A stretch of 64,000 nt of DNA from Anaerolineae bacterium. Its GTDB lineage: Bacteria; Chloroflexota; Anaerolineae; Epilineales; Epilineaceae. Positions 2,235 to 61,719 of this stretch are shown here, one piece after another. How positions within the stretch are numbered: position 1 is the stretch's first letter; every line of letters begins with the position of its first letter. The notes beneath the pieces are model-generated. The model was not told where the DNA came from and made no database searches. It worked only from the letters and a program-made list of their open reading frames with translations. The position numbers were made by a program, and so were the translations under genes. The stretch covers positions 8,401 through 72,400 of the forward strand of contig JBGAUA010000003.1 in assembly GCA_044228875.1 (NCBI GenBank), in the 5' to 3' direction.

Positions 2235-2430
2235 TCCGACCTTCAGGGCAGGGTGAGACCGTGGCGCAGCGCGCCGGGCGGTCAATTCCCGACCGGCGGT
2301 ATGGGGCGTCAGCCCCGAGCCCGCGAGCTTCTCTGGACGACGCGCCCTCGCGGGGGCGGGCTGCTTCCGGGGTGGCAGATCCGGTGTGATGCCGGAGCCG
2401 ACGGTACAGTCCGGATGGGAGAAGGTCCCA
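2235..2430 (+). promoter_or_regulatory. FMN riboswitch (RFN element)
   Basis: Conserved RFN strings read directly: CTTCAGGGCAGGGTGA...AATTCCCGACCGGCGGTA...AGCCCGCGAGC...GATCCGGTGTGATGCCGGAGCCGACGGTACAGTCCGGATGGGAGAAGG. It sits immediately upstream of a ribD-E-BA-H operon. Confidence 0.9.
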
Positions 2431-49824: not shown

Positions 49825-50949
49825 TCAGGTGAGGATCCGCTCCAATGCCCCCTGGTCCAGAGCGGCGCGCAACTCCATGGCGATGCGCTCGCCCACAGAA
49901 ACCGGGCGGCCATGGAGGTAGGCGCTGTAGGGCGTGGCGACGATGCCCGGCGATCCGGGCACACGAGGGCTGACGTCCACCACGACAAAGTCCTTCTTGG
50001 GTGGTCCGGGCACCACAATGCTCTGCAAGGCGAAGGGCCCGATGACCCCCGGCGGGTACAGCTGCGAAGCGGCGGTGGCGAAGCGCTCACCGGCGGCGAA
50101 GATATCCTCCAGCATGCTCTCCAGAACGGTCACGGCAAAGTGACCCGCCTCCTCGTATTTCAGCGGAATGGCGCCGAGTACCTCTGCCTGAAGTTCGGCC
50201 GGAAGCATCGCCAGACCTCCGATGTTGGTCTGACGCCGAGCATCGGTACCCAACAGCTCGAGGCGACCGTCCAGAGGCGATTGAAAGAAGTTGAAGTTGA
50301 CCGGCGCCCCCAGGACATACTCCTCGATGGTGGCTTCGGCCAGACTGTCCTTGGTAAACACGCCTTCGTTGATCTTGGCGGCCGCCTCGCGTCGGTATTC
50401 GTCTTCGTCGCGGGCGATGAAGAAGGCTCGTTCGAATCCCCGCGCGTTCTCCAAGGCCTTGACCAGCACGGGGCGGTCGATCTCCTCCGGAGTGGCGAAG
50501 ATCAGCGGACGGCGGACGCTGGCAGCGTCCAGGAGGTCATACTGGTTGGGATGCTGGCTGCGCTCCTCGATGCGCAGGAGAAAGCGGTTGCCGAACATGG
50601 GCACGCGGAAGGCGTGCTCGATGGCATCGTAGTCGCTCTGCAGGTAGACCTCAAAGGAGCGGTGGGGGACAAAGACGGCGTGGCGCTCGACCAGCTCAGC
50701 CTGCACCTCCGGCAGCAGGATGTCCGCGAAGCGATCCACCACGATCACGTCGTCCACGCAGCCCCGACCATCCTGAGCCCGGTAATGCTCGGCGTAGGTG
50801 CGCTCTCGGCCCTTCTGGGCGATGACCAGGGTGCGGAAGCCGCCCAGGCGGGCGCCGCGGCAGACCTCCAGGGCCGAATGGCTGCCGAGAACGGCCACGG
50901 TCAGGCGCCCTTCGTCCAGACGGGCGATGGATTCCTTCAACCAAGGCAT
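49825..50949 (-). CDS. purP: archaeal-type 5-formaminoimidazole-4-carboxamide ribonucleotide (FAICAR) synthetase family protein, paralogue B
   Basis: VAVLGSHSALEVCRGARLGG..., VFVPHRSFEVY, RVPMFGNRFLLRIEER, IEEYVLGAPVNFNFFQSPL...LELLGTD.R.QTN, VIGPFALQS, VSVGERIAMEL. Collinear with the MJ0136-type PurP ATP-grasp enzyme. Confidence 0.85.
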   Translation of the reverse strand: MPWLKESIARLDEGRLTVAVLGSHSALEVCRGARLGGFRTLVIAQKGRERTYAEHYRAQDGRGCVDDVIVVDRFADILLPEVQAELVERHAVFVPHRSFEVYLQSDYDAIEHAFRVPMFGNRFLLRIEERSQHPNQYDLLDAASVRRPLIFATPEEIDRPVLVKALENARGFERAFFIARDEDEYRREAAAKINEGVFTKDSLAEATIEEYVLGAPVNFNFFQSPLDGRLELLGTDARRQTNIGGLAMLPAELQAEVLGAIPLKYEEAGHFAVTVLESMLEDIFAAGERFATAASQLYPPGVIGPFALQSIVVPGPPKKDFVVVDVSPRVPGSPGIVATPYSAYLHGRPVSVGERIAMELRAALDQGALERILT

Positions 50950-50971
50950 GGCGGGCGGTCCTTTCCGGGGA

Positions 50972-52003
50972 TCAATCGATGATCTCGTCCATGCGCCCGG
51001 CCAGCCAGGCCTCGCGGATCTCGCGAGCGATGCGGCGGCCGGTGGACATGGGCTCGTCGAAGTACAGCGCGGCGTAGGGCGATCCGTTGACGAAGAGGTT
51101 GGTGCCGGCGACGATGCGGCAGCTGATCTCGATGACGTGGAAGGCCAGGTCCGGCGTGATGATGGTCTCCAAGCAGAAGGGGCCCCAGAAACCGCGCGGA
51201 CTCACCAACTCACGGGCGGCGGAAACCACCCGCTCCCCCATCTGGTAGGCCTCTTCCAGCATGGACTCCCGGAGCACCAGTTCCGAGTTGCCCACCACCA
51301 CGTAGCTGGGGCTGGGCTGGATCTCCGCCTGCACATGATGGGGCAGACGCCCCAGGCCGTCGACGTTGGTCTCGTAGCGGCGATCCATGCTGAGGATCTC
51401 CAGCCGGTCGCGCATGACGGACTGGAAGAAGTGGATGTAAAGGGTGACGCCCAGGACATAGCGCTGCACGGTATAGCGCCGCGGCCCCTGGTCCAGACCC
51501 CTCTCGGCCAACTGCTCATCCAGGTGCGCCCGCGAGCGGGCCAGGAAATAGCCGCTGCCGCCCGCCGCGCCGAAGGTCTTGACCAGCACCGGCCAACCGT
51601 CGATGGTGGCGAGGTCGGTGTATTCGGCCGGCTGGGGTATACCGGCCGCGGTCAGCCATTGGCGCTGCAGATCCCGGCTGCCCTCCCAACGCAGCACGGG
51701 CCGGCTGCCATAGTAGCCCACCCGCATGGAGGCGTTGACCGCTTCGCCCAGGTAGGCGACGAAGGAGCCGTGCGGCACCATGACGACGCCGCGCGCCACC
51801 AGATCCGTCTCGAGGTCCGCGAACGCCGCGTAGCTGTCGATGGTCAGCACATCGTCGACGAAGGGATATCGCCGATACAAGCCATCCTTGCCCTTCGGAG
51901 CGATCACCAGGTTGGGCAGGGCTTCGTCACGCGCGCCGCGCAGGATCTGCAGCGCCGAATGGCTGCCCAGGGTGGCGATGGTGGGAAGGGAGCGTTGGGG
52001 CAT
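50972..52003 (-). CDS. purP: archaeal-type FAICAR synthetase (PurP, formate- and ATP-dependent), paralogue A
   Basis: IATLGSHSALQILRGAR, MVPHGSFVAYLG, YYGSRPVLRWEGSR, VQRYVLGVTLYIHFF, LEILSMDRRYETNVDGL, SYVVVGNSELVLRESML, GPFCLETI, EISCRIVAGTN, MSTGRRIAREI: block-by-block match to Methanocaldococcus-type PurP as I recall it. Start at MPQRSL (52003), downstream of the purD stop. Confidence 0.9.
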   Translation of the reverse strand: MPQRSLPTIATLGSHSALQILRGARDEALPNLVIAPKGKDGLYRRYPFVDDVLTIDSYAAFADLETDLVARGVVMVPHGSFVAYLGEAVNASMRVGYYGSRPVLRWEGSRDLQRQWLTAAGIPQPAEYTDLATIDGWPVLVKTFGAAGGSGYFLARSRAHLDEQLAERGLDQGPRRYTVQRYVLGVTLYIHFFQSVMRDRLEILSMDRRYETNVDGLGRLPHHVQAEIQPSPSYVVVGNSELVLRESMLEEAYQMGERVVSAARELVSPRGFWGPFCLETIITPDLAFHVIEISCRIVAGTNLFVNGSPYAALYFDEPMSTGRRIAREIREAWLAGRMDEIID

Positions 52004-52065: not shown

Positions 52066-53409
52066 TCAGACTGGAGGCGACTCCGGCGTCCGGGCTGCGA
52101 TGTCGCGGCGCCACTGCATCCCGGCGAACCCGACGCCCGTGGGATCGTCGCAGTCGTGGTCCTTCAGCCGTCCGTCGATGGCGCCGTAGGCCCGGTTGCG
52201 TGCCAGTTCCAGCGAATCCGCCACCGCCACCACGCTGAGCACCCGCCCGCCGTTGGTCTCTACGCCGCCACCATCCGTAAGTCGGCTACCGGCGTGCAGG
52301 ATCTTGACCCCCGGGGCAGATCCGACCACATCAAGCCCTCGGATCAAGTTCCCCTTTCGGCTTGACTCAGGGTAGCCGGCAGAAGCCAGAACCACACAGA
52401 TGGCTTCCTTGTCCTCGTGCATCTCCAATCGAAGCTCGCTCAGCCGGCCTTCGGCGGAGGCGCGGAGGATGACGGCCAGATCCGTCTTCAGCAGCGGCAG
52501 CTGCACCTGGGTCTCCGGGTCGCCGAGGCGGCAGTTGAACTCGATGACCTTGGGGCCTTCCTGGGTCATCATCAGGCCGCAGTACAGGCAGCCAACGAAG
52601 GGATGCCCTTCGTCGCACATGCCACGAAGGGTGGGTTCGACCACACCCTTTAGGATCCGCTCCAGCAACTCCGGCGCGACGGCCACCGGGGCGTAGCTGC
52701 CCATGCCGCCCGTGTTGGGGCCTCGTTCGCCGTCCTTGAGTCGCTTGTGGTCCTGGGCCAGGGGCAGGAGGCGGTAATGGATGCCGTCGGTGATGGCCAT
52801 CACCGAGAGTTCCGGTCCTTCCAGACGCTCCTCGATCAGCACCCGCTCGCCGGCCGCCCCGAAACCGCCATCCACCAACATGGTCCTCGCGGCGGCCATG
52901 GCCGCCGCCTCGTCGTCGGCTACCACCACTCCCTTGCCCGCGGCCAGACCGTCGGCCTTCACCACACAGTGGCCGCCCATGCGGCGAATCGCCGCTTCCG
53001 CCGTCACCAGATCACGCGTCACTTCGAAATCCGGGCTCGGAATGCCGTGGCGTGCCATGAACGCTCGAGCCCAGGCCTTGGAACTCTCCAAGCGCGCCGC
53101 AGCGGCCGTGGGGCCGAAGACCGTGAGTCCCGCCGCTCGGAAACGGTCGACGATGCCCGCCGCCAGCGGATCCTCCGGGCTGATCACCGTCAGGCCGATA
53201 CCTTCGACCAGGGCGTGGGCCACCAGCGCATCGAAGTCCATGACGCCGATGGGCACGTTGCGCGCCTTGGGCTCGGTGGCCGTCCCGCCATTGCCGGGGG
53301 CCACGTCGATGCGGGTGACCGAGGGCGAGCGCCCCAGGATCCAGGCGAGCGCATGCGCCCGGGCATCGGCGCCCACGATGAGGATGCGCCCGGGATCTGG
53401 TGGGGTCAT
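52066..53409 (-). CDS. purD: phosphoribosylamine--glycine ligase
   Basis: ILIVGADARAHALAW...APGNGGTA...VVKADGLAAGKGVVV...ERVLIEERLEGPELSVMAITDG...AQDHKRL.DGE.GPNTGGMGSY...GCLYCGLMMT..GPKVIEFNCRLGDPE. Confidence 0.95.
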   Translation of the reverse strand: MTPPDPGRILIVGADARAHALAWILGRSPSVTRIDVAPGNGGTATEPKARNVPIGVMDFDALVAHALVEGIGLTVISPEDPLAAGIVDRFRAAGLTVFGPTAAAARLESSKAWARAFMARHGIPSPDFEVTRDLVTAEAAIRRMGGHCVVKADGLAAGKGVVVADDEAAAMAAARTMLVDGGFGAAGERVLIEERLEGPELSVMAITDGIHYRLLPLAQDHKRLKDGERGPNTGGMGSYAPVAVAPELLERILKGVVEPTLRGMCDEGHPFVGCLYCGLMMTQEGPKVIEFNCRLGDPETQVQLPLLKTDLAVILRASAEGRLSELRLEMHEDKEAICVVLASAGYPESSRKGNLIRGLDVVGSAPGVKILHAGSRLTDGGGVETNGGRVLSVVAVADSLELARNRAYGAIDGRLKDHDCDDPTGVGFAGMQWRRDIAARTPESPPV

Positions 53410-53448: not shown

Positions 53449-55110
53449 TCAGGCCGCGTCCGTAAGAAAGACCTGGGCGACGATCACCGGCCGCCGCTTG
53501 AGCCGCTCAGCCACCAACTCGCCAAGACGGCGGACGATCTGGTCCTCCAAGCCGCTCCGTCCGGCGTTGGACGTTCGCAGAACCTCGACAGCGGCCCCCC
53601 GAAGCGCTTCCAGGAGGCCTTCGGCTCCCGGCTGGAAGACGCAGCCGCGGGTTGAGACGGCCACCTGCGGCTTGGATCTGGAGTCGGTGCGATCCAGGGT
53701 GGCGGAGACAAGGATGAAGCCGCTCTCGGACAGTCGGCGCCGCTCGCGCAGCACCGTCTCTCCCACGTCCCCCACGCCGGAACCGTCGACGAAGATGTAG
53801 CCGCCCGGTATCTCCCCCTCCTGCCGCGCGCCGGCATCGTCGATGCTGACCACCTGGCCGCTCTCGATGATGAAGATGTCCTCCGGGGCCATTCCCAGCT
53901 CTTGGGCCAGGCGACCGTGCAGCACCAGCATGCGGTACTCACCGCCGGCGGGGATGAAGTAGCGCGGCCGGGTCAGGCGGAGCATCAGCTTGAGTTCTTC
54001 ACGGCTGGCATGGCCGGAGACATGCACCGGCATCAGGGCCTGGTAGAGCACATCCACCCCCAGACGGAAGAGGTTGTCCAGGGTACGATGGACCAGCTCT
54101 TCATTGCCGGGGATGGGCGTGGCGGACAGCACCACGGTATCACCCTTGCGCAGGGTCACGCGCGGATGCGTGCCCTCCGCCATGCGGGTGAGGGCGCTGG
54201 TCGGCTCGCCCTGGCTTCCGGTGCAGCAGATGGCCACCTCGTCGGGCGGCAGCTTGTCCAGTTCCTTGATCCCCAGGAGGGTGCCGGGCTCCGGGGTCAG
54301 GAAGCCGAGATCCAGGGCCATGTCCCCGTTGTTCTCCATGGAGCGACCCACCAGTCCCACCTTGCGCCCGTAGAGTTCGGCGACGTTGATCACCTCCTGC
54401 ACCCGCGAGATGTTGGACGCGAAGGTGGCGATGATCACCCGCCCTTCGGCCCGCTCGAAGACGCGCTCCAGGGCATCGCGCACCAGCGACTCCGAGGGCG
54501 TGTGGCCGGCCCGCTCGGCATTGGTGCTGTCGGATAGCAGGGCCAGGACGCCGCGGCTACCGTAATCGGCCAGGCGGTGGATGTCGGTGGGCTCACCGGA
54601 TACCGGTGTCAGGTCGAACTTGTACTCGCCGGTGTGGATGACCACGCCCAGGGGCGTCTCGATGGCGAATCCAACGGCATCGGGAATGGAGTGGGCCACG
54701 CGAAAGGGTTCGACGGTGAAGGGCCCGGCCTGAATCCGCTCCCCGGGCTCGATGGTGGTGATCTGGGCCCCCGCGAGCCGCTTGTGCTCCTTCAGCTTGA
54801 CCTCAATGAGACCGCGGGTCAGTCGGGTGGCGTAGATCGGCGCCGGCGCGTTGGGCAACACGTAGGGCAAGGCCCCATGATGGTCTTCGTGGCCATGGGT
54901 GATGAAGTAGGCGACCAGCCGGTCCACATTGTCGACCAGATACTGGAAATTGGGCAGGACGAGATCGACCCCCGGCATGTCGCTTTCCGGGAACATCAGG
55001 CCGCAGTCGATCACGATGATCGCCCCGTCGTATTCCAGGGCGGTCATGTTGCGCCCCACCTCACCGTAACCGCCCAGGGGAAGGATCTTCAGATTGCCGC
55101 TTGGTTTCAA
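53449..55110 (-). CDS. rnj: ribonuclease J
   Basis: LKILPLGGYGEVGRNMTALEYDGAIIVIDCGLMFP...YFITHGHEDHHGALPYVL (metallo-beta-lactamase HxHxDH) ...beta-CASP...VHVSGHASREELK. Confidence 0.95.
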   Translation of the reverse strand: MKPSGNLKILPLGGYGEVGRNMTALEYDGAIIVIDCGLMFPESDMPGVDLVLPNFQYLVDNVDRLVAYFITHGHEDHHGALPYVLPNAPAPIYATRLTRGLIEVKLKEHKRLAGAQITTIEPGERIQAGPFTVEPFRVAHSIPDAVGFAIETPLGVVIHTGEYKFDLTPVSGEPTDIHRLADYGSRGVLALLSDSTNAERAGHTPSESLVRDALERVFERAEGRVIIATFASNISRVQEVINVAELYGRKVGLVGRSMENNGDMALDLGFLTPEPGTLLGIKELDKLPPDEVAICCTGSQGEPTSALTRMAEGTHPRVTLRKGDTVVLSATPIPGNEELVHRTLDNLFRLGVDVLYQALMPVHVSGHASREELKLMLRLTRPRYFIPAGGEYRMLVLHGRLAQELGMAPEDIFIIESGQVVSIDDAGARQEGEIPGGYIFVDGSGVGDVGETVLRERRRLSESGFILVSATLDRTDSRSKPQVAVSTRGCVFQPGAEGLLEALRGAAVEVLRTSNAGRSGLEDQIVRRLGELVAERLKRRPVIVAQVFLTDAA

Positions 55111-55889
55111 GAGAATGCCTCGTGAGATGGTGCGCCCCGGTCAGCCGCCGCCCGGACCAGCGCGGCGAAGGGCTCGGCTTCCAATGAAGCTCCGCCCACC
55201 AGGGCACCGTCGATGTCCGCGACGGCCAGGTAGGCCGCGATGTTCTCTGGTTTGACCGATCCGCCGTAGAGCAGCCGAGCGGCCGCAGCGCCCGCCGCTC
55301 CGAAGCGGGCACCGAGGGCCTCGCGCAGTAGACCCATGACCCGCGCCGCCTCGGCGGCATCGCAGGCCTTGCCGGTACCGATGGCCCAGACCGGCTCGTA
55401 GGCCAGCACGAGGCGCGCCGCCTCGGCTTCGGCGATGCCGTCCAGGGCCTTGAGCTGCGCCAGCACCACCGCATCTGCCTGACCCGCCTCGCGTTGGTCC
55501 AGGTGCTCGCCGACGCAGAGGATGGGGACCAGACCGTGGGCGAAGGCAGCGTGCACCTTACGTCCCAAGGCCTCGTCTGTCTCGCCGAAGAGGCTGCGCC
55601 GCTCGGAGTGGCCAAGGATCACGTAATCGGCCAGTTCCATCACCATGACCGGCGAGATCTCGCCGGTGTAGGCGCCTTGGTCCGCCCAATGCATGTTCTG
55701 CGCCGCGACGCTGAGTCCCCGCGGTCGCGCGATCTCAGCCACGGCGGCCAGGGCGATTGCCGGAGGTGCCAACAGCACCTCGACGTCGTCGATCCCGGCG
55801 ACGGCGGCAGCGACATCCGCTGCCAGCGCGCGGGCCTGGGCCACGGTCTTGTGCATCTTCCAATTGCCGGCGATGAGCGGTCTGCGCAA
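55107..55889 (-). CDS. tpiA: triosephosphate isomerase
   Basis: RRPLIAGNWKMHKT...ILGHSERR...CVGE...AYEPVWAIGTGK...YGGSV. The start is a TTG: an in-frame TAG lies two codons upstream and no ATG or GTG is available. Confidence 0.95.
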   Translation of the reverse strand: MRRPLIAGNWKMHKTVAQARALAADVAAAVAGIDDVEVLLAPPAIALAAVAEIARPRGLSVAAQNMHWADQGAYTGEISPVMVMELADYVILGHSERRSLFGETDEALGRKVHAAFAHGLVPILCVGEHLDQREAGQADAVVLAQLKALDGIAEAEAARLVLAYEPVWAIGTGKACDAAEAARVMGLLREALGARFGAAGAAAARLLYGGSVKPENIAAYLAVADIDGALVGGASLEAEPFAALVRAAADRGAPSHEAFS

Positions 55890-56536: not shown

Positions 56537-56895
56537 GAGCCTCTGCCTCCTGAGTTGGATGGATGCCGTCGGACCGAATGCGACATGCAATTATGGCGGC
56601 CGCGCCGGCAGGGTCCAAAGACCTGCGGCCGGCGGTTCGTGTCGCGCGGATGACACGCGACGCCCCGCGACCATGCCGGGACCAAGGTGATCGGGATCCT
56701 CGCCAGGGGAACCTGTCGATATCGTGAGAACACCCACGTTATAGAGGACGCAACGAATACGCGCGGCGGCGCATTGGCCGCCGCCGTCCTCGGAGCAAAG
56801 CCGGAACGTGCAGGTCGGCGCCGCGGGCCGCGATACGACGCCTTCGTCAATTGCCGGTCAAGCTGGTTTCCTGTTCCAAGAAAGGGCGATGCGTC

Positions 56896-59800
56896 ATGAC
56901 ATTCCAGAGTGCCGCGCTGGCGTTCACCGTCTGGTTGCGGCGGTCCGGTTGGCGACCAGGTCTGCTCGCGGGGATGGTCTTGACCGGTCTGGTCGGCGGC
57001 TGGATGCAGCGATCGCCGTCCACCGCTCTGCCTCGCGTTCGTTCGGCAACCGCGCAGGAGCCGTCTCCGCCGGGTTTCCTGGGTCTGCCCATCTTGAACT
57101 ACCTGGGTGAAGACGATGTCTGCCGTAGCCTGGTGGGCCTGCAGAACCTCGGTGACGAGGCGGCTCAAGCTGTCGTCCTGTTCTGGGACGATCAACGTGC
57201 GGGCGATCCTTGCGCCGGCCCCTTCAAGGTGGAATGCAGCGGGCTCCTCGCTCCCGGCGCCATCTGGTCCTTGCGCGGAGCCCAGATTCCTCCGGGCAGT
57301 CGCAGCGCCATGGCCTTCAGCGTGACCGCCAGGCGGCTGAGCGAGCTCGGCCTGGACATGGGATTCGACAGTACGGCGGCGCATTACCTTTGCGCCACCT
57401 TGTCCAGCGATCTGATGCTGGGCGACTGCGCCGCCTACGCGCGCTTCCGCGCGGCATGGGCCTCCGGCGGCAGCTTCGCCGGGCTGCCATTGGGTCTCGC
57501 AGCAGGGCCGCCACTTTCCGCCCAAGTGTTGCGCCACTGTCCCTCGGCAAATTCGCCGGGCCTGGAGGTCAGCTCCCTCTACGCCGCTTCCTGGCAGAGC
57601 GCCGCGGCGAAAGGACCCCACGTCTATCTGGCCGGCCGGATTCGCGTCCCCGACCCCTTTCTGTCCGCCTTCGTCCATCTGCAGAACCTGGGATCGCGGG
57701 AGGCTCAGGCCACCGTCGCCTTCCATGCGGCTGGAGATTGCCTGCCGGCTCGAGCCTGCGGCCGATTGACCGTACAGCCGGGCGCATCGGCGATGTTGTC
57801 CTTGGCGGACTGCGCCCCGACCGACGGCGGGCTCAGCATCCAGAGCGATGAGCCCCTGGCCGTGACCGTCGACCTGGAAGGAGCGGACAGCCTGTCCACA
57901 GTGGAGGGCACCGACGCCGTCAACTGGGGCACGCGGCTGGTCGGCGCCATGGACCCCGATGCGGCCCGCGGTTGGTCCACCACCACCTATGTGCAGAGCC
58001 CGCCAGGCGCCGAGCGCGAGACCAGGGTGCGCGTCGAGCATCTGTCGCCGGACGGTGCGGTGCTGCACAGCGCCGAACAAACGCTCTGCCCCGGAGGCAT
58101 GCTGACCTTTCCTCGGCCGGCCGCGGACTCGCGACCCGGACGTCGGACCGGGACCTTGCGCGTCAGCAGCCTCGACGGGATTTCGGTGGCGGCCGGTGCC
58201 CTGATGGAGCGCTCCGGCCGCTTCGGGCGGTCGGTCGAGGCGGCGCTCGTCAACCTGGTGCCGGATCCGGCGCCGGGGCGCGGGACTGTCCATTCCCTGC
58301 CCATCGTGGCCAAGGATCTGGATGGCCTGGGACTGACGACGGAGATTGCCCTGGCCAACCACAGCATCTCGCCCGGCTGGGTGGATCTGGCCCTGATGAC
58401 CTACGACGCGAGCGGCCCGCTGGACATCCGCTGCCGCCGTCTGGCCGCCGGACAGGTGGGCTACATCGATGTTGAGCAGATGGTTCAGATCCCGATTGGT
58501 TTCCTTGGCGGCATGGTGGTCTCCCCGGTATGGTGGTCGCACGCGACTCCGGACGGTGAATCGACGAGCCCCTCGCTGAGCGTCAGCTCGATCCTGCGCA
58601 CGGGAACCCGTGACGGTGAAGACATCCCGGGCGACGAACTGGCGGTCAGCCAGGGCATTCGGCTGAACAGCATCCCGGACTTCCTGCGCGCGGCTCCCGC
58701 GCAGCGTTGCCGGCCACTGCTGGCGGCGATCCAGCCACAGCCCACCGCGACGGCCGATCCGCTGGTCAAGGACGAAGCCCTTCAAGCCATGGCCTGGCTG
58801 CCCGCCTTGGCCTACCTGGGTCAGGATCCCGTTTGCCTCGCCACGGTGACGGTGACCAACGAAGGCGACAGGCCGGCGCAGCTGCTGTGGCTGGCTTGGA
58901 CGGAGCCTGGCTTCTGCCCCCCGAAGGCCGCAGGTCCTATGGCCTTCGGCTGCTCCGGTCTCCTGGCCCCGGGCGGAACCTGGGTGCTCGGCGAAGGCAC
59001 CTTGCCCGATACGGCGAACGGAGGTCTGATCTACAGTTTGAGCACAGCCACGCTGCTCGAACTGGAACTGGATCCTGTTTCACGGGAACCCATCGCCTCG
59101 GTCCTCTGCCAGCGTATGTCAGGGATCTCGGTTCCGGCCGATCAAATGGAAGGTCGCCTGCGGATGGCCTTCCAGACAGGAGGTCGCTTCGCCGACCTGC
59201 CCCTGGGCAAAGCCTGGGGGCCGCCGATCACGGCCTCGGTCAGCCGAACCTGCCCGGCAGACCAGACGCCGGGCTTCGAGGTGACCGACAGCTATGCGGC
59301 ACTGCGGCCGGACAAGGGGCGAGCGACGCGCATGGAACATCGCTACGCGGCCCAGCCCATCCTGGCCGACTGGGCCCAGCTCAACAGCACCCTCTACCTC
59401 CAGAACACCGGCCTTAGCTGCGCCGCGGTCAACCTGGCATTCCAGGTCCTGGGCGACTGCGTGTACACCCGCAACTGCCAGATCGGATCCCTGGCCCCCG
59501 GCGAGACCTTTGCTTTCGACGCCACGGATTGCGTCGGGCCGGATTGGCGGGGCAGCGCGGTCATCACGGCCAACGAACCGCTGGCCATCGTCCTGGACCA
59601 GATCGGGCGCGACCGCCTGCGAAGCAGTCGCGCGGGATCCAGCGCCCTGGCCTACGACATGGACGGCAACGGACAGCTGGAGTCAGCCGATGTGGATCGG
59701 GTCCTCGCCGCCCTGGGCCGCCGGCGGGGCGACGGCGGTTGGGACGCGCGCCTGGACCTCAACAGCGACGACGAGGTGAACGATCTCGATGTGGCCACCG

Positions 59801-61719
59801 CCCGGACCGGCCTCTGCCGACCTGCTCAGCCGGCGGGTGTCCCCGTCCCCAGGCCCGACGATCCGTTGCCCCGCCTGCAGACCTTCCTGCCGGCCCTGAC
59901 CGGCGATGGGTCCGGGCGCGCCGACTGCAACGCCTACGTGGACATCCAGAACCTGGGCCAGGTTCCAGCCAAGGCCATCCTCCTCCTGTGGAGCGCGGTG
60001 ACCGCCGATTCGGGCGATTGCCAGAGTCCCAGCCGCGTAGAATGCTCGCCGCTGCTGGCGCCGGGGACCCGTTGGCTGTTGCCGCGGCCGACGCTGGCGG
60101 GAGTCGGAAGCGCGGTGGCCTTCGGGGTGGACGGTATCGCGGATCCGACGGCAGTTCTTGGTATCGAAGCGGACGATACCGTGGCCGATATCCTCTGCGA
60201 GACCCTTCGCTTTGCTGTGGTCGGCGAATGCGCGGACTACCGCCGTTTCAAGTCCGCCTGGGACAGCAAGGGGTCCTTTTCCGGGATCCCCTTCGACAAG
60301 CTCAACGGTGTTCCGTTGGGCATCCGCGTCGAGCGGGATTGCGCCTCGTCCGGACCGCGGGTTCCGGCAGGCCGGCGCGAGCGCAGCGCCTACACCGGGC
60401 TGGATGCCGCGCAGCTCTCCGGCTGGGACGAAGCCGCCGGCGCCCATGTCAGTACCGTGCCGGTCCTCTACGCCAACAAGGCTGGCATCAACACCCGGCT
60501 CTGGCTGCAGAACGCCGGTGTCGCCGCCGCCCAGGTTGAGGTCTGGCTACAGGCCCAGAACGACTGCACCGGCAGCCGCCGCTGCACCTCCTTGTCCGTG
60601 CACCCTGGAGCGGTGGTCGCCGTCGATCCCTACGTCGACTGCCGACACATCGACTGGCAGGGCTCTGCCTGGCTGCGGTCGACAGCGCCTATCGCCGTGG
60701 TGGCGGAGACCGACGGGCGCGGCGTTCGGATGGCCGCCGCGGCACCGATGCGACAGCCGCCCCTGGGCGCCGATCCTGCAGCGCTCACCACGAACACCGT
60801 GCTCTTCGGCCCGCTCATCCAGGCGGACCAGCAGGGCTGGGACGTGGGGGTCAACGTCCAGAACCTGAGCCTGAGCCAGGAAGCCTGGGTGGATGTGGCC
60901 TTCCTGGACGGGCAGGGCGCACCGGTGTCCACCTTCGACGCCCGTATCTGCGCCGGCGACACCGAGACCTTCTTCCTGCCCGTGTCCGATGTGTCGCGGC
61001 AGCGGTTGGGGTCCTTGGGCACCGTCCGCGTGCTGAGCCGGCCGCCGGAAGGCCAGGCCGGCCTCGTCTCGACGCCCATCGCTGGAATTCTGATGATGAT
61101 GAACTATGCCGATCCCTCTCGCGCCACCTTGCTGGAGGCGGTCTCCTATCCACTGCTGACCTCAGACGCGGTGGGTCCATGGCCGCTTGGCCAAGGGCGG
61201 CCAGGCACGGCAGTGCTGGCCTTGCCGGGACTGGTTCATCAACCCGGACCGGAGGGCGAGACCGGCGAGCTGGTGATCAGCAATCTGGCCGGACTGCCGG
61301 GTGAGACGGTGGTGGACGTCACGCTGTTCGACGACAAGGGTGTGGTGGCCAAGACCGTGAGGCGATTGGCGGCCGGCGCGGTGGAGGCCATTCCGCTGGC
61401 GGAACTGGGCGTTCCCGCAGGCTTCCGAGGCGCGGCGCTGGTCTCGGCCGCCAGCTGGACCCATCGTCGGCCGGACCGGCCCGCGGACCCGGCGGTGATT
61501 GCCCTGGCGGCCGCGGCGCTGACCAAGGTGGGTGCTGACGACTCGCCACGCTTGAGCCCGGGGCCGCGCATGGCCGCTGAGCCGGGCATCCCGCTGGTGC
61601 GGCTGCCAGGTGTGGGGACGTCGGAGCCACGTCCACCGGCTCCGACCGCGGAACCGCGCACGCCTGAACCGCTAGGAACCGGAAAGGCCTGGCTGCCGCG
61701 GCTCGGAAAGGGGCGCTGA
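56896..61719 (+). CDS. giant (about 1,607 aa) secreted/anchored Cys-rich repeat protein: three paralogous super-modules, a dockerin-like Ca-binding pair, C-terminal Pro/Thr linker
   Basis: N-terminal hydrophobic anchor AALAFTVWL...GLLAGMVLTGLVGG. Three collinear modules (nt ~57076-57885, 58786-59595, 59872-60711) share LP.L..LG....C...V..QN.G....A...W......C......ECS.LLAPG..W ... LC..L.....C..Y.RF..AW...G.F...P. Repeated V.(V/L)QN.G / V.V.N.G beta-sandwich (CARDB-like) signatures. No enzyme motif recognised. Confidence 0.8.
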   Translation: MTFQSAALAFTVWLRRSGWRPGLLAGMVLTGLVGGWMQRSPSTALPRVRSATAQEPSPPGFLGLPILNYLGEDDVCRSLVGLQNLGDEAAQAVVLFWDDQRAGDPCAGPFKVECSGLLAPGAIWSLRGAQIPPGSRSAMAFSVTARRLSELGLDMGFDSTAAHYLCATLSSDLMLGDCAAYARFRAAWASGGSFAGLPLGLAAGPPLSAQVLRHCPSANSPGLEVSSLYAASWQSAAAKGPHVYLAGRIRVPDPFLSAFVHLQNLGSREAQATVAFHAAGDCLPARACGRLTVQPGASAMLSLADCAPTDGGLSIQSDEPLAVTVDLEGADSLSTVEGTDAVNWGTRLVGAMDPDAARGWSTTTYVQSPPGAERETRVRVEHLSPDGAVLHSAEQTLCPGGMLTFPRPAADSRPGRRTGTLRVSSLDGISVAAGALMERSGRFGRSVEAALVNLVPDPAPGRGTVHSLPIVAKDLDGLGLTTEIALANHSISPGWVDLALMTYDASGPLDIRCRRLAAGQVGYIDVEQMVQIPIGFLGGMVVSPVWWSHATPDGESTSPSLSVSSILRTGTRDGEDIPGDELAVSQGIRLNSIPDFLRAAPAQRCRPLLAAIQPQPTATADPLVKDEALQAMAWLPALAYLGQDPVCLATVTVTNEGDRPAQLLWLAWTEPGFCPPKAAGPMAFGCSGLLAPGGTWVLGEGTLPDTANGGLIYSLSTATLLELELDPVSREPIASVLCQRMSGISVPADQMEGRLRMAFQTGGRFADLPLGKAWGPPITASVSRTCPADQTPGFEVTDSYAALRPDKGRATRMEHRYAAQPILADWAQLNSTLYLQNTGLSCAAVNLAFQVLGDCVYTRNCQIGSLAPGETFAFDATDCVGPDWRGSAVITANEPLAIVLDQIGRDRLRSSRAGSSALAYDMDGNGQLESADVDRVLAALGRRRGDGGWDARLDLNSDDEVNDLDVATARTGLCRPAQPAGVPVPRPDDPLPRLQTFLPALTGDGSGRADCNAYVDIQNLGQVPAKAILLLWSAVTADSGDCQSPSRVECSPLLAPGTRWLLPRPTLAGVGSAVAFGVDGIADPTAVLGIEADDTVADILCETLRFAVVGECADYRRFKSAWDSKGSFSGIPFDKLNGVPLGIRVERDCASSGPRVPAGRRERSAYTGLDAAQLSGWDEAAGAHVSTVPVLYANKAGINTRLWLQNAGVAAAQVEVWLQAQNDCTGSRRCTSLSVHPGAVVAVDPYVDCRHIDWQGSAWLRSTAPIAVVAETDGRGVRMAAAAPMRQPPLGADPAALTTNTVLFGPLIQADQQGWDVGVNVQNLSLSQEAWVDVAFLDGQGAPVSTFDARICAGDTETFFLPVSDVSRQRLGSLGTVRVLSRPPEGQAGLVSTPIAGILMMMNYADPSRATLLEAVSYPLLTSDAVGPWPLGQGRPGTAVLALPGLVHQPGPEGETGELVISNLAGLPGETVVDVTLFDDKGVVAKTVRRLAAGAVEAIPLAELGVPAGFRGAALVSAASWTHRRPDRPADPAVIALAAAALTKVGADDSPRLSPGPRMAAEPGIPLVRLPGVGTSEPRPPAPTAEPRTPEPLGTGKAWLPRLGKGR

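Follow-up and report, generated by a model that had tools for sequence, protein, structure and literature searches.

How does a bacterium in which no PurH can be found carry out steps 9 and 10 of purine synthesis, the formylation of 5-aminoimidazole-4-carboxamide ribonucleotide (AICAR) to its formyl derivative (FAICAR) and the ring closure that yields inosine monophosphate (IMP)? The question is raised by two genes, here called PurP-A and PurP-B (or A and B), that lie in tandem behind purD in 64,000 nucleotides of an Anaerolineae bacterium (assembly GCA_044228875.1, contig JBGAUA010000003.1, positions 8,401 to 72,400). This whole stretch is referred to as the window; it is C249:8401-72400 of the source genome, labelled G000, an assembly of 3.9 Mb in 315 contigs that is 87% complete. 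Both genes specify members of the PurP family of ATP-grasp proteins, and they represent two anciently diverged types of that family, II and III. From sequence comparison, and with a probability of about 60%, we suggest that the two proteins act jointly as a folate-independent substitute for PurH in a PurH-free, Epilinea-like lineage of the Chloroflexota.

Membership of the PurP family is clear for both proteins. An earlier note, made from the letters of the window alone, had described two adjacent ATP-grasp genes of 343 and 374 aa directly after purD and had recognised them as PurP by their motifs. Open reading frames (ORFs), Pfam and the PurD model TIGR00877 agree with that description, and the motifs are present in A and B, respectively, as IATLGSHSAL and VAVLGSHSAL, VPHGSF and VPHRSF, GPFCLE and GPFALQ, and GRRIA.E and GERIA.E. 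The Pfam domains DUF1246 and DUF1297 (cut-offs 25 and 23.8 bits) were matched by PurP-A at E values of 1e-33 and 2e-66 (113 and 223 bits) and by PurP-B at 7.5e-37 and 1e-55 (127 and 189 bits), and G000 contains exactly two DUF1297 genes. Neither protein appears among the matches to TIGR01142, the model for PurT. Both align over their full length to all three solved PurP structures, the best match of PurP-A being PF1517 of Pyrococcus furiosus (2r84, E 7e-90). Against MJ0136 of Methanocaldococcus jannaschii (2r7k), E was 2.5e-81 for PurP-A and 1e-66 for PurP-B, with identities of about 45% and 36%, which bears out the earlier statement that A is closer to the characterised PurP; between A and B themselves identity is 35%. 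The predicted structure of PurP-B (AlphaFold2; mean predicted local distance difference test score 87, predicted template-modelling (TM) score 0.84) shows the three-domain ATP-grasp fold of the family and retrieved PurP structures only as its top nine matches in the PDB (2r7l/2r7k, TM-scores of 0.79–0.84, E 1e-35), followed by biotin carboxylase and PurK at about 0.5; outside PurP no match exceeded about 0.55. The PDB contains no structure of a type III PurP.

Three main types of PurP have been described: type I, or cluster Ia, exemplified by MJ0136; type II, or cluster Ib, by PF1517; and type III, or cluster II, by PF0421 (PMC3261824, PMC6486802). Proteins of cluster I carry Asn258, in contact with AICAR's carboxamide, and a Gly-rich loop with the consensus (K/R)GG(K/R)G at 161–165. 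Those of cluster II have His258 and a loop longer by two residues, and the formyl-group contacts His27 and Arg314 are universal in PurP (PMC3261824, PMC6486802). These two papers are the source of the residue roles given here, and positions follow the numbering of MJ0136. Two alignments were examined, one of 120 relatives of A and 116 relatives of B with MJ0136 and PF1517, the other of 65 full-length representatives found by searching 1.84 billion cluster representatives. The type I/II side of the family is marked by Gly93, Tyr208, Glu230, Val255, Asn258, Glu297, Glu310 and Ala317 and by the loop GAxGGxG; at the same places the type III side has Arg93, Asn208, Gln230, Glu255, His258, Gln297, Asp310 and Gly317 and a loop of the form xxxERxFF, longer by two residues. 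The type III markers are 87–100% conserved among 39 type III representatives. PurP-A possesses the complete type I/II set, Gly93, Asn258 and Glu310 included, and also Ser94 and Arg264. All of the type III residues are found in PurP-B, together with a loop, ENARGFERAFF, that is two residues longer and not Gly-rich, so that it lacks the combination of Asn258 and Gly-rich loop that marks types I and II. Intact in both proteins are His27, Lys156, Arg228, Glu265, Ser266 and Arg314, and PurP-B retains Ser94.

The earlier note had proposed a phylogeny of the two proteins together with archaeal PurP clades. A maximum-likelihood tree (IQ-TREE) of full-length representatives, 29 from the type-I side and 39 from the type-III side, was divided between the two sides with support of 100/100, and A and B fell on opposite sides. 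Bacterial A-type proteins formed a clade (100/99) that is sister to PF1517, A grouping with PF1517 at 93/86, and bacterial B-type proteins formed another (100/99) that is nested within type III; the two clades show parallel splits between the Chloroflexota and bacteria of the candidate phyla radiation (CPR). One type III protein outside the bacterial B clade, P0245, has archaeal surroundings: its neighbours are PolB, Pus10, a split guaA and, next to it, another PurP. A recent duplication did not give rise to A and B. The two genes had been called paralogues, which holds for their shared family, but they are not ordinary paralogues, being the ancient types II and III by their residues and by the tree.

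PurH itself appears to be missing. Its AICAR-transformylase domain (PF01808) occurs in 356 of 401 Chloroflexota genomes and was found neither in G000 nor in two other genomes of the family, which are 96% and 97% complete, one of them in 5 contigs; tblastn with five full-length PurH proteins gave no match in G000. A stand-alone IMP cyclohydrolase (IMPCH), PurJ, is also lacking in G000, since MGS domains occur there only in CarB-sized ORFs, and PurO was not found in G000, G290 and G386, the pair-holding genomes searched for it. PurH and PurH-type IMPCH are likewise absent from the pair-carrying genomes of Candidatus Epilinea brevis, UCB3, a Caldilineae and a Daviesbacteria bacterium; altogether seven pair-carrying bacterial genomes (G000, G290, G386, G401, G402, G404 and G405) are without either. 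The earlier note had held that a complete PurH, with PurP genes widespread in the phylum, would speak against its reading; no PurH was found, and PurP is rare in the phylum, being present in 10 of 401 Chloroflexota genomes, from three families.

About 42 other Chloroflexota genomes, including G043, G076 and G006 and falling in families f2 and f4 and in the window's class, have neither PurH nor PurP. These genomes are near-complete, a part of them single-contig, and PurO was not found in the three named, which were the ones searched. They represent either purine auxotrophs or holders of an unrecognised step-9 enzyme, and because there are so many of them, loss of step 9 seems to be tolerated in the phylum. 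It could then be argued that IMP arises independently of the pair, by salvage or through a PurH-like enzyme too divergent to be detected, and that A and B have some other nucleotide-related role; the PurN-like gene described below is an example of an enzyme that profile hidden Markov models (HMMs) can miss. We regard this as quite improbable. The genome retains ten further genes of de novo purine synthesis, pur operons of several phyla include the pair, and neither five PurH queries nor two HMMs gave a match.

The distribution of the tandem in other genomes points the same way. It recurs in eight further loci. Both the Caldilineae and CPR bacteria have it in pur operons, mostly with no PurH but in some cases next to one, and in CPR and Chloroflexota genomes it occupies the purH slot of these operons. 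Ca. Epilinea brevis (L003), UCB3 (L004), the Caldilineae (L055) and G290 (L058) share the order purD-A-B. In the Caldilineae and G290 it continues as purD-A-B-purE-purC, the Daviesbacteria genome has purF/N-purD-folD-purL-purQ-(purA)-A-B-purB-...-purK-purE-purC, and GCA_040961665 has purN-purD-purL-purQ-A-B-purB-purK-purE-purC-purM. PurP and PurH share pathway steps 9 and 10 and an operon position in relatives, but in fold and chemistry they are unrelated, PurH transferring the formyl group of 10-formyl-tetrahydrofolate and PurP ligating free formate at the expense of ATP.

Other arrangements of PurP genes were also seen. In members of Chloroflexota family f12 (G001, G027, G051 and G063; loci L009, L010, L014, L016, L017 and L020), two Asn258-type PurP genes stand in tandem, of which one has a Gly-rich loop and the other does not. 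With a type III gene apart from these, there are 3–4 PurP genes per genome, and PurH and a normal purM-purN are present too. In G244 (family f63; L028/L013), purM, a stand-alone IMPCH (PurJ) of 198 aa, a solo type-I PurP of 376 aa and an ORF resembling AICAR transformylase follow one another in this order, so that PurP has been inserted between the halves of a split purH. At L062, within a pur operon, an ORF of 383 aa with no Pfam match and a signal-peptide-like N-terminus lies between a type I-side and a type III PurP gene.

MJ0136 is a proven FAICAR synthetase (EC 6.3.4.23) and the sole PurP with demonstrated activity (PMC3261824). In 61 archaeal genomes types II and III are found together one-to-one, and 37 of these genomes lack any known IMPCH; a PurP II/III heterohexamer has already been proposed (PMC6486802). 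PF1517 and PF0421 each lack FAICAR synthetase activity alone in vitro (cited in PMC3261824, PMC6486802). It is because of this strict co-occurrence, the inactivity of the single Pyrococcus proteins, the tight bacterial tandem and the stronger conservation of B (about 60% identity between Chloroflexota and CPR, against about 54% for A) that joint action of A and B is favoured. PurP-A, with its canonical active site, would use ATP to join formate to the 5-amino group of AICAR, via a formyl-phosphate intermediate as in the M. jannaschii enzyme, giving FAICAR. PurP-B would be a co-expressed, obligate partner, the two probably forming a mixed oligomer of an A trimer and a B trimer, and closure of FAICAR to IMP may be performed by B, by an undetected enzyme, or by a slow non-enzymatic reaction. 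That the pair has this activity, forms such a complex and takes formate as the donor is what we infer from these comparisons.

A simpler possibility is that PurP-A alone is a sufficient FAICAR synthetase, like that of M. jannaschii, with B a catalytically dead or unrelated paralogue retained for some other reason and closure left to a non-enzymatic step or an unrecognised enzyme. All conserved residues of the type I/II side are kept in A, Asn258, Arg264 and Glu310 among them, and the NCBI names given to the bacterial proteins follow the same line, A-type being called formate--phosphoribosylaminoimidazolecarboxamide ligase and B-type simply DUF1297 domain-containing protein. This is nevertheless unlikely. 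B is the better conserved of the two and always adjoins A, the genes overlapping by 1–4 nt or lying 3 nt apart in relatives (L053, L057, L058 and L059), and the archaeal co-occurrence is one-to-one. As PF1517 and PF0421 are each inactive singly, it is not established that A alone runs step 9.

Several points weigh against the pair being a joint PurH substitute. On the NCBIfam models for PurP equivalogs (cut-offs 482–603 bits), which were built on archaeal sequences, PurP-A scores 334 bits and PurP-B 265, both short of the threshold. The loop of PurP-A, GAAGGSG, keeps its glycines, but both basic residues of the archaeal consensus are replaced. The in vitro inactivity of PF1517 and PF0421 counts here also, and no type II or III PurP has a demonstrated activity (PMC3261824, PMC6486802). 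At just 87%, the completeness of G000 limits the absence calls, which come from HMM and BLAST searches; since a divergent PurN-like gene of this lineage escapes the Pfam models, they are not absolute. PurPs coexist with PurH in L057, L061 and family f12, as in the operon of GCA_040960095, where a complete purH follows A-B, and with PurO and PurV in L063, and 24 archaeal genomes hold the pair together with PurH, PurJ or PurO (PMC6486802). Some bacteria and archaea thus have the pair as well as an intact PurH, so that the one does not simply exclude the other.

An idea raised earlier by Brown et al. (PMC3261824) would make PurP-B the ring-closing enzyme. Acting in complex with PurP II, it would be either a third, unrecognised type of IMP cyclohydrolase or a FAICAR cyclase assisted by ATP, with His258, in place of the carboxamide-contacting Asn, possibly serving as the base for attack on the formyl carbon. 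The idea stays alive because pair-holders lack IMPCH and because of this Asn-to-His change. Besides the seven bacterial genomes, in three of which PurO was looked for and not found, 37 of the 61 archaeal pair-holders are without PurO, PurJ and PurH, and 24 of 25 archaeal genomes with a solo PurP I have PurO (PMC6486802); the solo type-I PurP examined, that of G244, adjoins a stand-alone IMPCH gene. PurP-B also keeps the residues for the ribonucleotide's phosphate (Ser94, Ser266) and the formyl group (His27, Arg314), with carboxamide contact and ATP loop altered invariantly across its family. Set against this are the genomes just listed in which the pair is accompanied by PurH, PurJ or PurO, and the chance that a divergent IMPCH has gone undetected. 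We are not aware of any ATP-grasp protein that acts as a cyclohydrolase. A cyclase role for PurP-B is thus a tentative proposal, worth keeping in view but doubtful.

The rest of the pathway is largely accounted for. G000 contains PurF, PurD, PurL, PurQ, PurM, PurK, PurE, PurC, PurB and PurA, with PurF, PurC and PurB above NCBIfam cut-offs and purK-purE on contig C244. Its PurM is interrupted by the end of contig C96 and is 73% identical to the PurM of the Caldilineae pur operon. In the sister genomes PurM is divergent (175 bits, TIGR00878 cut-off 236); in L051/L052, of G386 and G290, it is stand-alone, and PurK gave no match in either genome. E. coli sequences of PurN, PurC, PurE, PurF and PurB served as tblastn leads, and the matches used were confirmed by NCBIfam. 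FolD and Fmt are present in G000, so that the organism has folate one-carbon metabolism.

An apparent gap at glycinamide ribonucleotide (GAR) formylation had suggested another role for the pair. The earlier note had the bacterium either running step 9 with formate and ATP or using the second protein for a related ligation, and in its sharpest form this would make one PurP, most plausibly B, a PurT-like, formate-dependent GAR formyl ligase. PurD is encoded immediately upstream, and PF00551 finds Fmt alone in G000, G290, G386, G404 and G405. PurT was not found, as in six genomes no match to TIGR01142 scored above its cut-off of 502 bits; in G000 PurK (TIGR01161, 382 bits) is the best match and the others are CarB and PurD. 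PurT resembles PurP in its ATP-grasp fold, its use of formate and ATP and its pathway, but it belongs to another ATP-grasp subfamily and acts on GAR, not AICAR. In E. coli the folate route (PurN) and the formate route (PurT) coexist. The gap was probably not real. On contig C197 G000 encodes a PurN-like protein of 294 aa that keeps the PurN catalytic motifs GVNLHPSLP (NxHPSL) and VDEGPVV (DxGP), scores just 12–15 bits with PF00551 and has PurN structures as its best solved-structure matches (3auf, E 6.7e-5). With the product of the gene immediately upstream of purD-A-B in the Caldilineae (L055), which also has no Pfam match, it shares 65% identity, and in one genome the distance from the gene to purD-A-B downstream is 2 kb. 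Among its 96 homologues the JGI name PurN is frequent, and many are encoded on contigs that also carry PurP pairs; NCBI annotates the protein as hypothetical. The GAR transformylase of the lineage is therefore probably this divergent, folate-dependent PurN-like protein. With it, and with ordinary PurN adjoining the pair in CPR operons, a GAR formyl ligase role for PurP-B is largely rejected and is the most improbable of the roles considered. Regarding the earlier note, a PurP at step 9 agrees with the absence of PurH, but a GAR-ligation role for B has lost support; of the genes it had listed for a genome search, purH and purO are absent, the folate genes FolD and Fmt are present, and the purN/purT gap is likely false.

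The closest known parallel is the P. furiosus pair, PF1517 (2R84-2R87) and PF0421, which consists of the same two types as A and B. As in Pyrococcus and the Crenarchaeota, the host lacks PurO and a PurH-type IMPCH, and the genes are adjacent and linked to other purine genes. The bacterial pair differs in that its host has folate one-carbon genes (FolD, Fmt, PurN-like), the A loop is without its two basic residues, and A and B fall in clades of their own. MJ0136 (2R7K-2R7N) has the same fold and domain architecture, and its His27, Arg314, Ser94 and Ser266 are found in both A and B and its Asn258 in A, but it is a single gene product paired with PurO, in place of two diverged types and no PurO.

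How an archaeal type of gene came to be in these bacteria is another matter. In their survey of 1,266 bacterial genomes Cruz et al. (2019) met no purP, and they described it as an archaea-only gene that arose after the domain split (PMC6486802). The earlier note had judged the GC content and codon style of the genes to be native, and this was confirmed, GC content at third codon positions (GC3) being 0.88 in PurP-A and 0.82 in PurP-B against a genome median of 0.86. Any inter-domain transfer must therefore be old. A recent horizontal transfer is ruled out by this native GC3, by synteny with Ca. Epilinea brevis (92% identity) and by the parallel Chloroflexota/CPR splits. As a system this is the PurP II/III pair already known from Archaea, and what is new relative to published surveys is its bacterial host; specific to this locus are the Chloroflexota/Epilinea host, a family-wide absence of PurH, PurJ and PurO that stands out from the background of the phylum, and a hidden PurN.

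Table 1. Features of the purD-PurP locus and of related or neighbouring sequences.
Feature	Location	Coordinates	Strand	Remarks
purD	Window	52066-53409	-	Phosphoribosylamine-glycine ligase; TIGR00877, 464 bits (cut-off 288); first gene of the purD-purP_A-purP_B string
PurP-A	Window	50972-52003	-	343 aa, ATG start; Pfam DUF1246 + DUF1297; type II / cluster Ib
A-B spacer	Window	50950-50971	-	22 nt, GGAAAGGA; Shine-Dalgarno-like run upstream of the PurP-B start, read from the sequence
PurP-B	Window	49825-50949	-	374 aa; Pfam DUF1246 + DUF1297; type III / cluster II
rnj (RNase J)	Window	53449-55110	-	ORF
tpiA	Window	55107-55889	-	ORF
FMN riboswitch	Window	2235-2430	+	RF00050, 81.9 bits (gathering score 66.2)
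Large ORF	Window	56851-61719	+	1622 aa
PurN-like gene	G000, C197	1510-2391	+	294 aa; probable GAR transformylase
PurN-like relative	L055	6530-7432		
PurN-like relative	L066	8001-8951		
Stand-alone purM	G386, C4	2687109-2688131		
ORF between PurP genes	L062	6853-8004		383 aa

In the window (Table 1), 62 nt separate the end of purD from the start of PurP-A. A longer, GTG-started reading of PurP-A (to 52114) would run into the 3' end of purD, and the 343-aa form is the one chosen by gene callers in other genomes. PurP-B is followed by a flippase-like gene and then a glycosyltransferase gene, and the order rnj-purD-A-B-flippase is kept in Ca. Epilinea brevis, the closest named relative, with protein identity of about 92%. 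Control of purD-A-B by a riboswitch was considered and rejected, as the window has no ZTP or purine riboswitch in Rfam searches. The flavin mononucleotide (FMN) riboswitch in the table is the sole Rfam match in the window, and the large ORF has internal repeated segments and the look of a secreted or surface protein.

The presence of a PurP II/III module in the place of PurH in uncultured Chloroflexota and CPR bacteria bears on the status of PurP as an archaeal signature, and the locus also bears on the role of types II and III and on ring closure where no known IMP cyclohydrolase exists. As a guess, a pair from mesophilic bacteria may lend itself better to expression and assay than do the proteins of hyperthermophiles. 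For the metabolic reconstruction of these activated-sludge filaments the PurN-like gene matters as well, since without it the lineage would be scored as missing three purine steps. If PurP III does close the ring, the two genes would together amount to a complete counterpart of bifunctional PurH, independent of folate and with an ATP-grasp scaffold, and PurP III would be the long-missing cyclase of the Crenarchaeota, Pyrococcus, CPR bacteria and this family of Chloroflexota.

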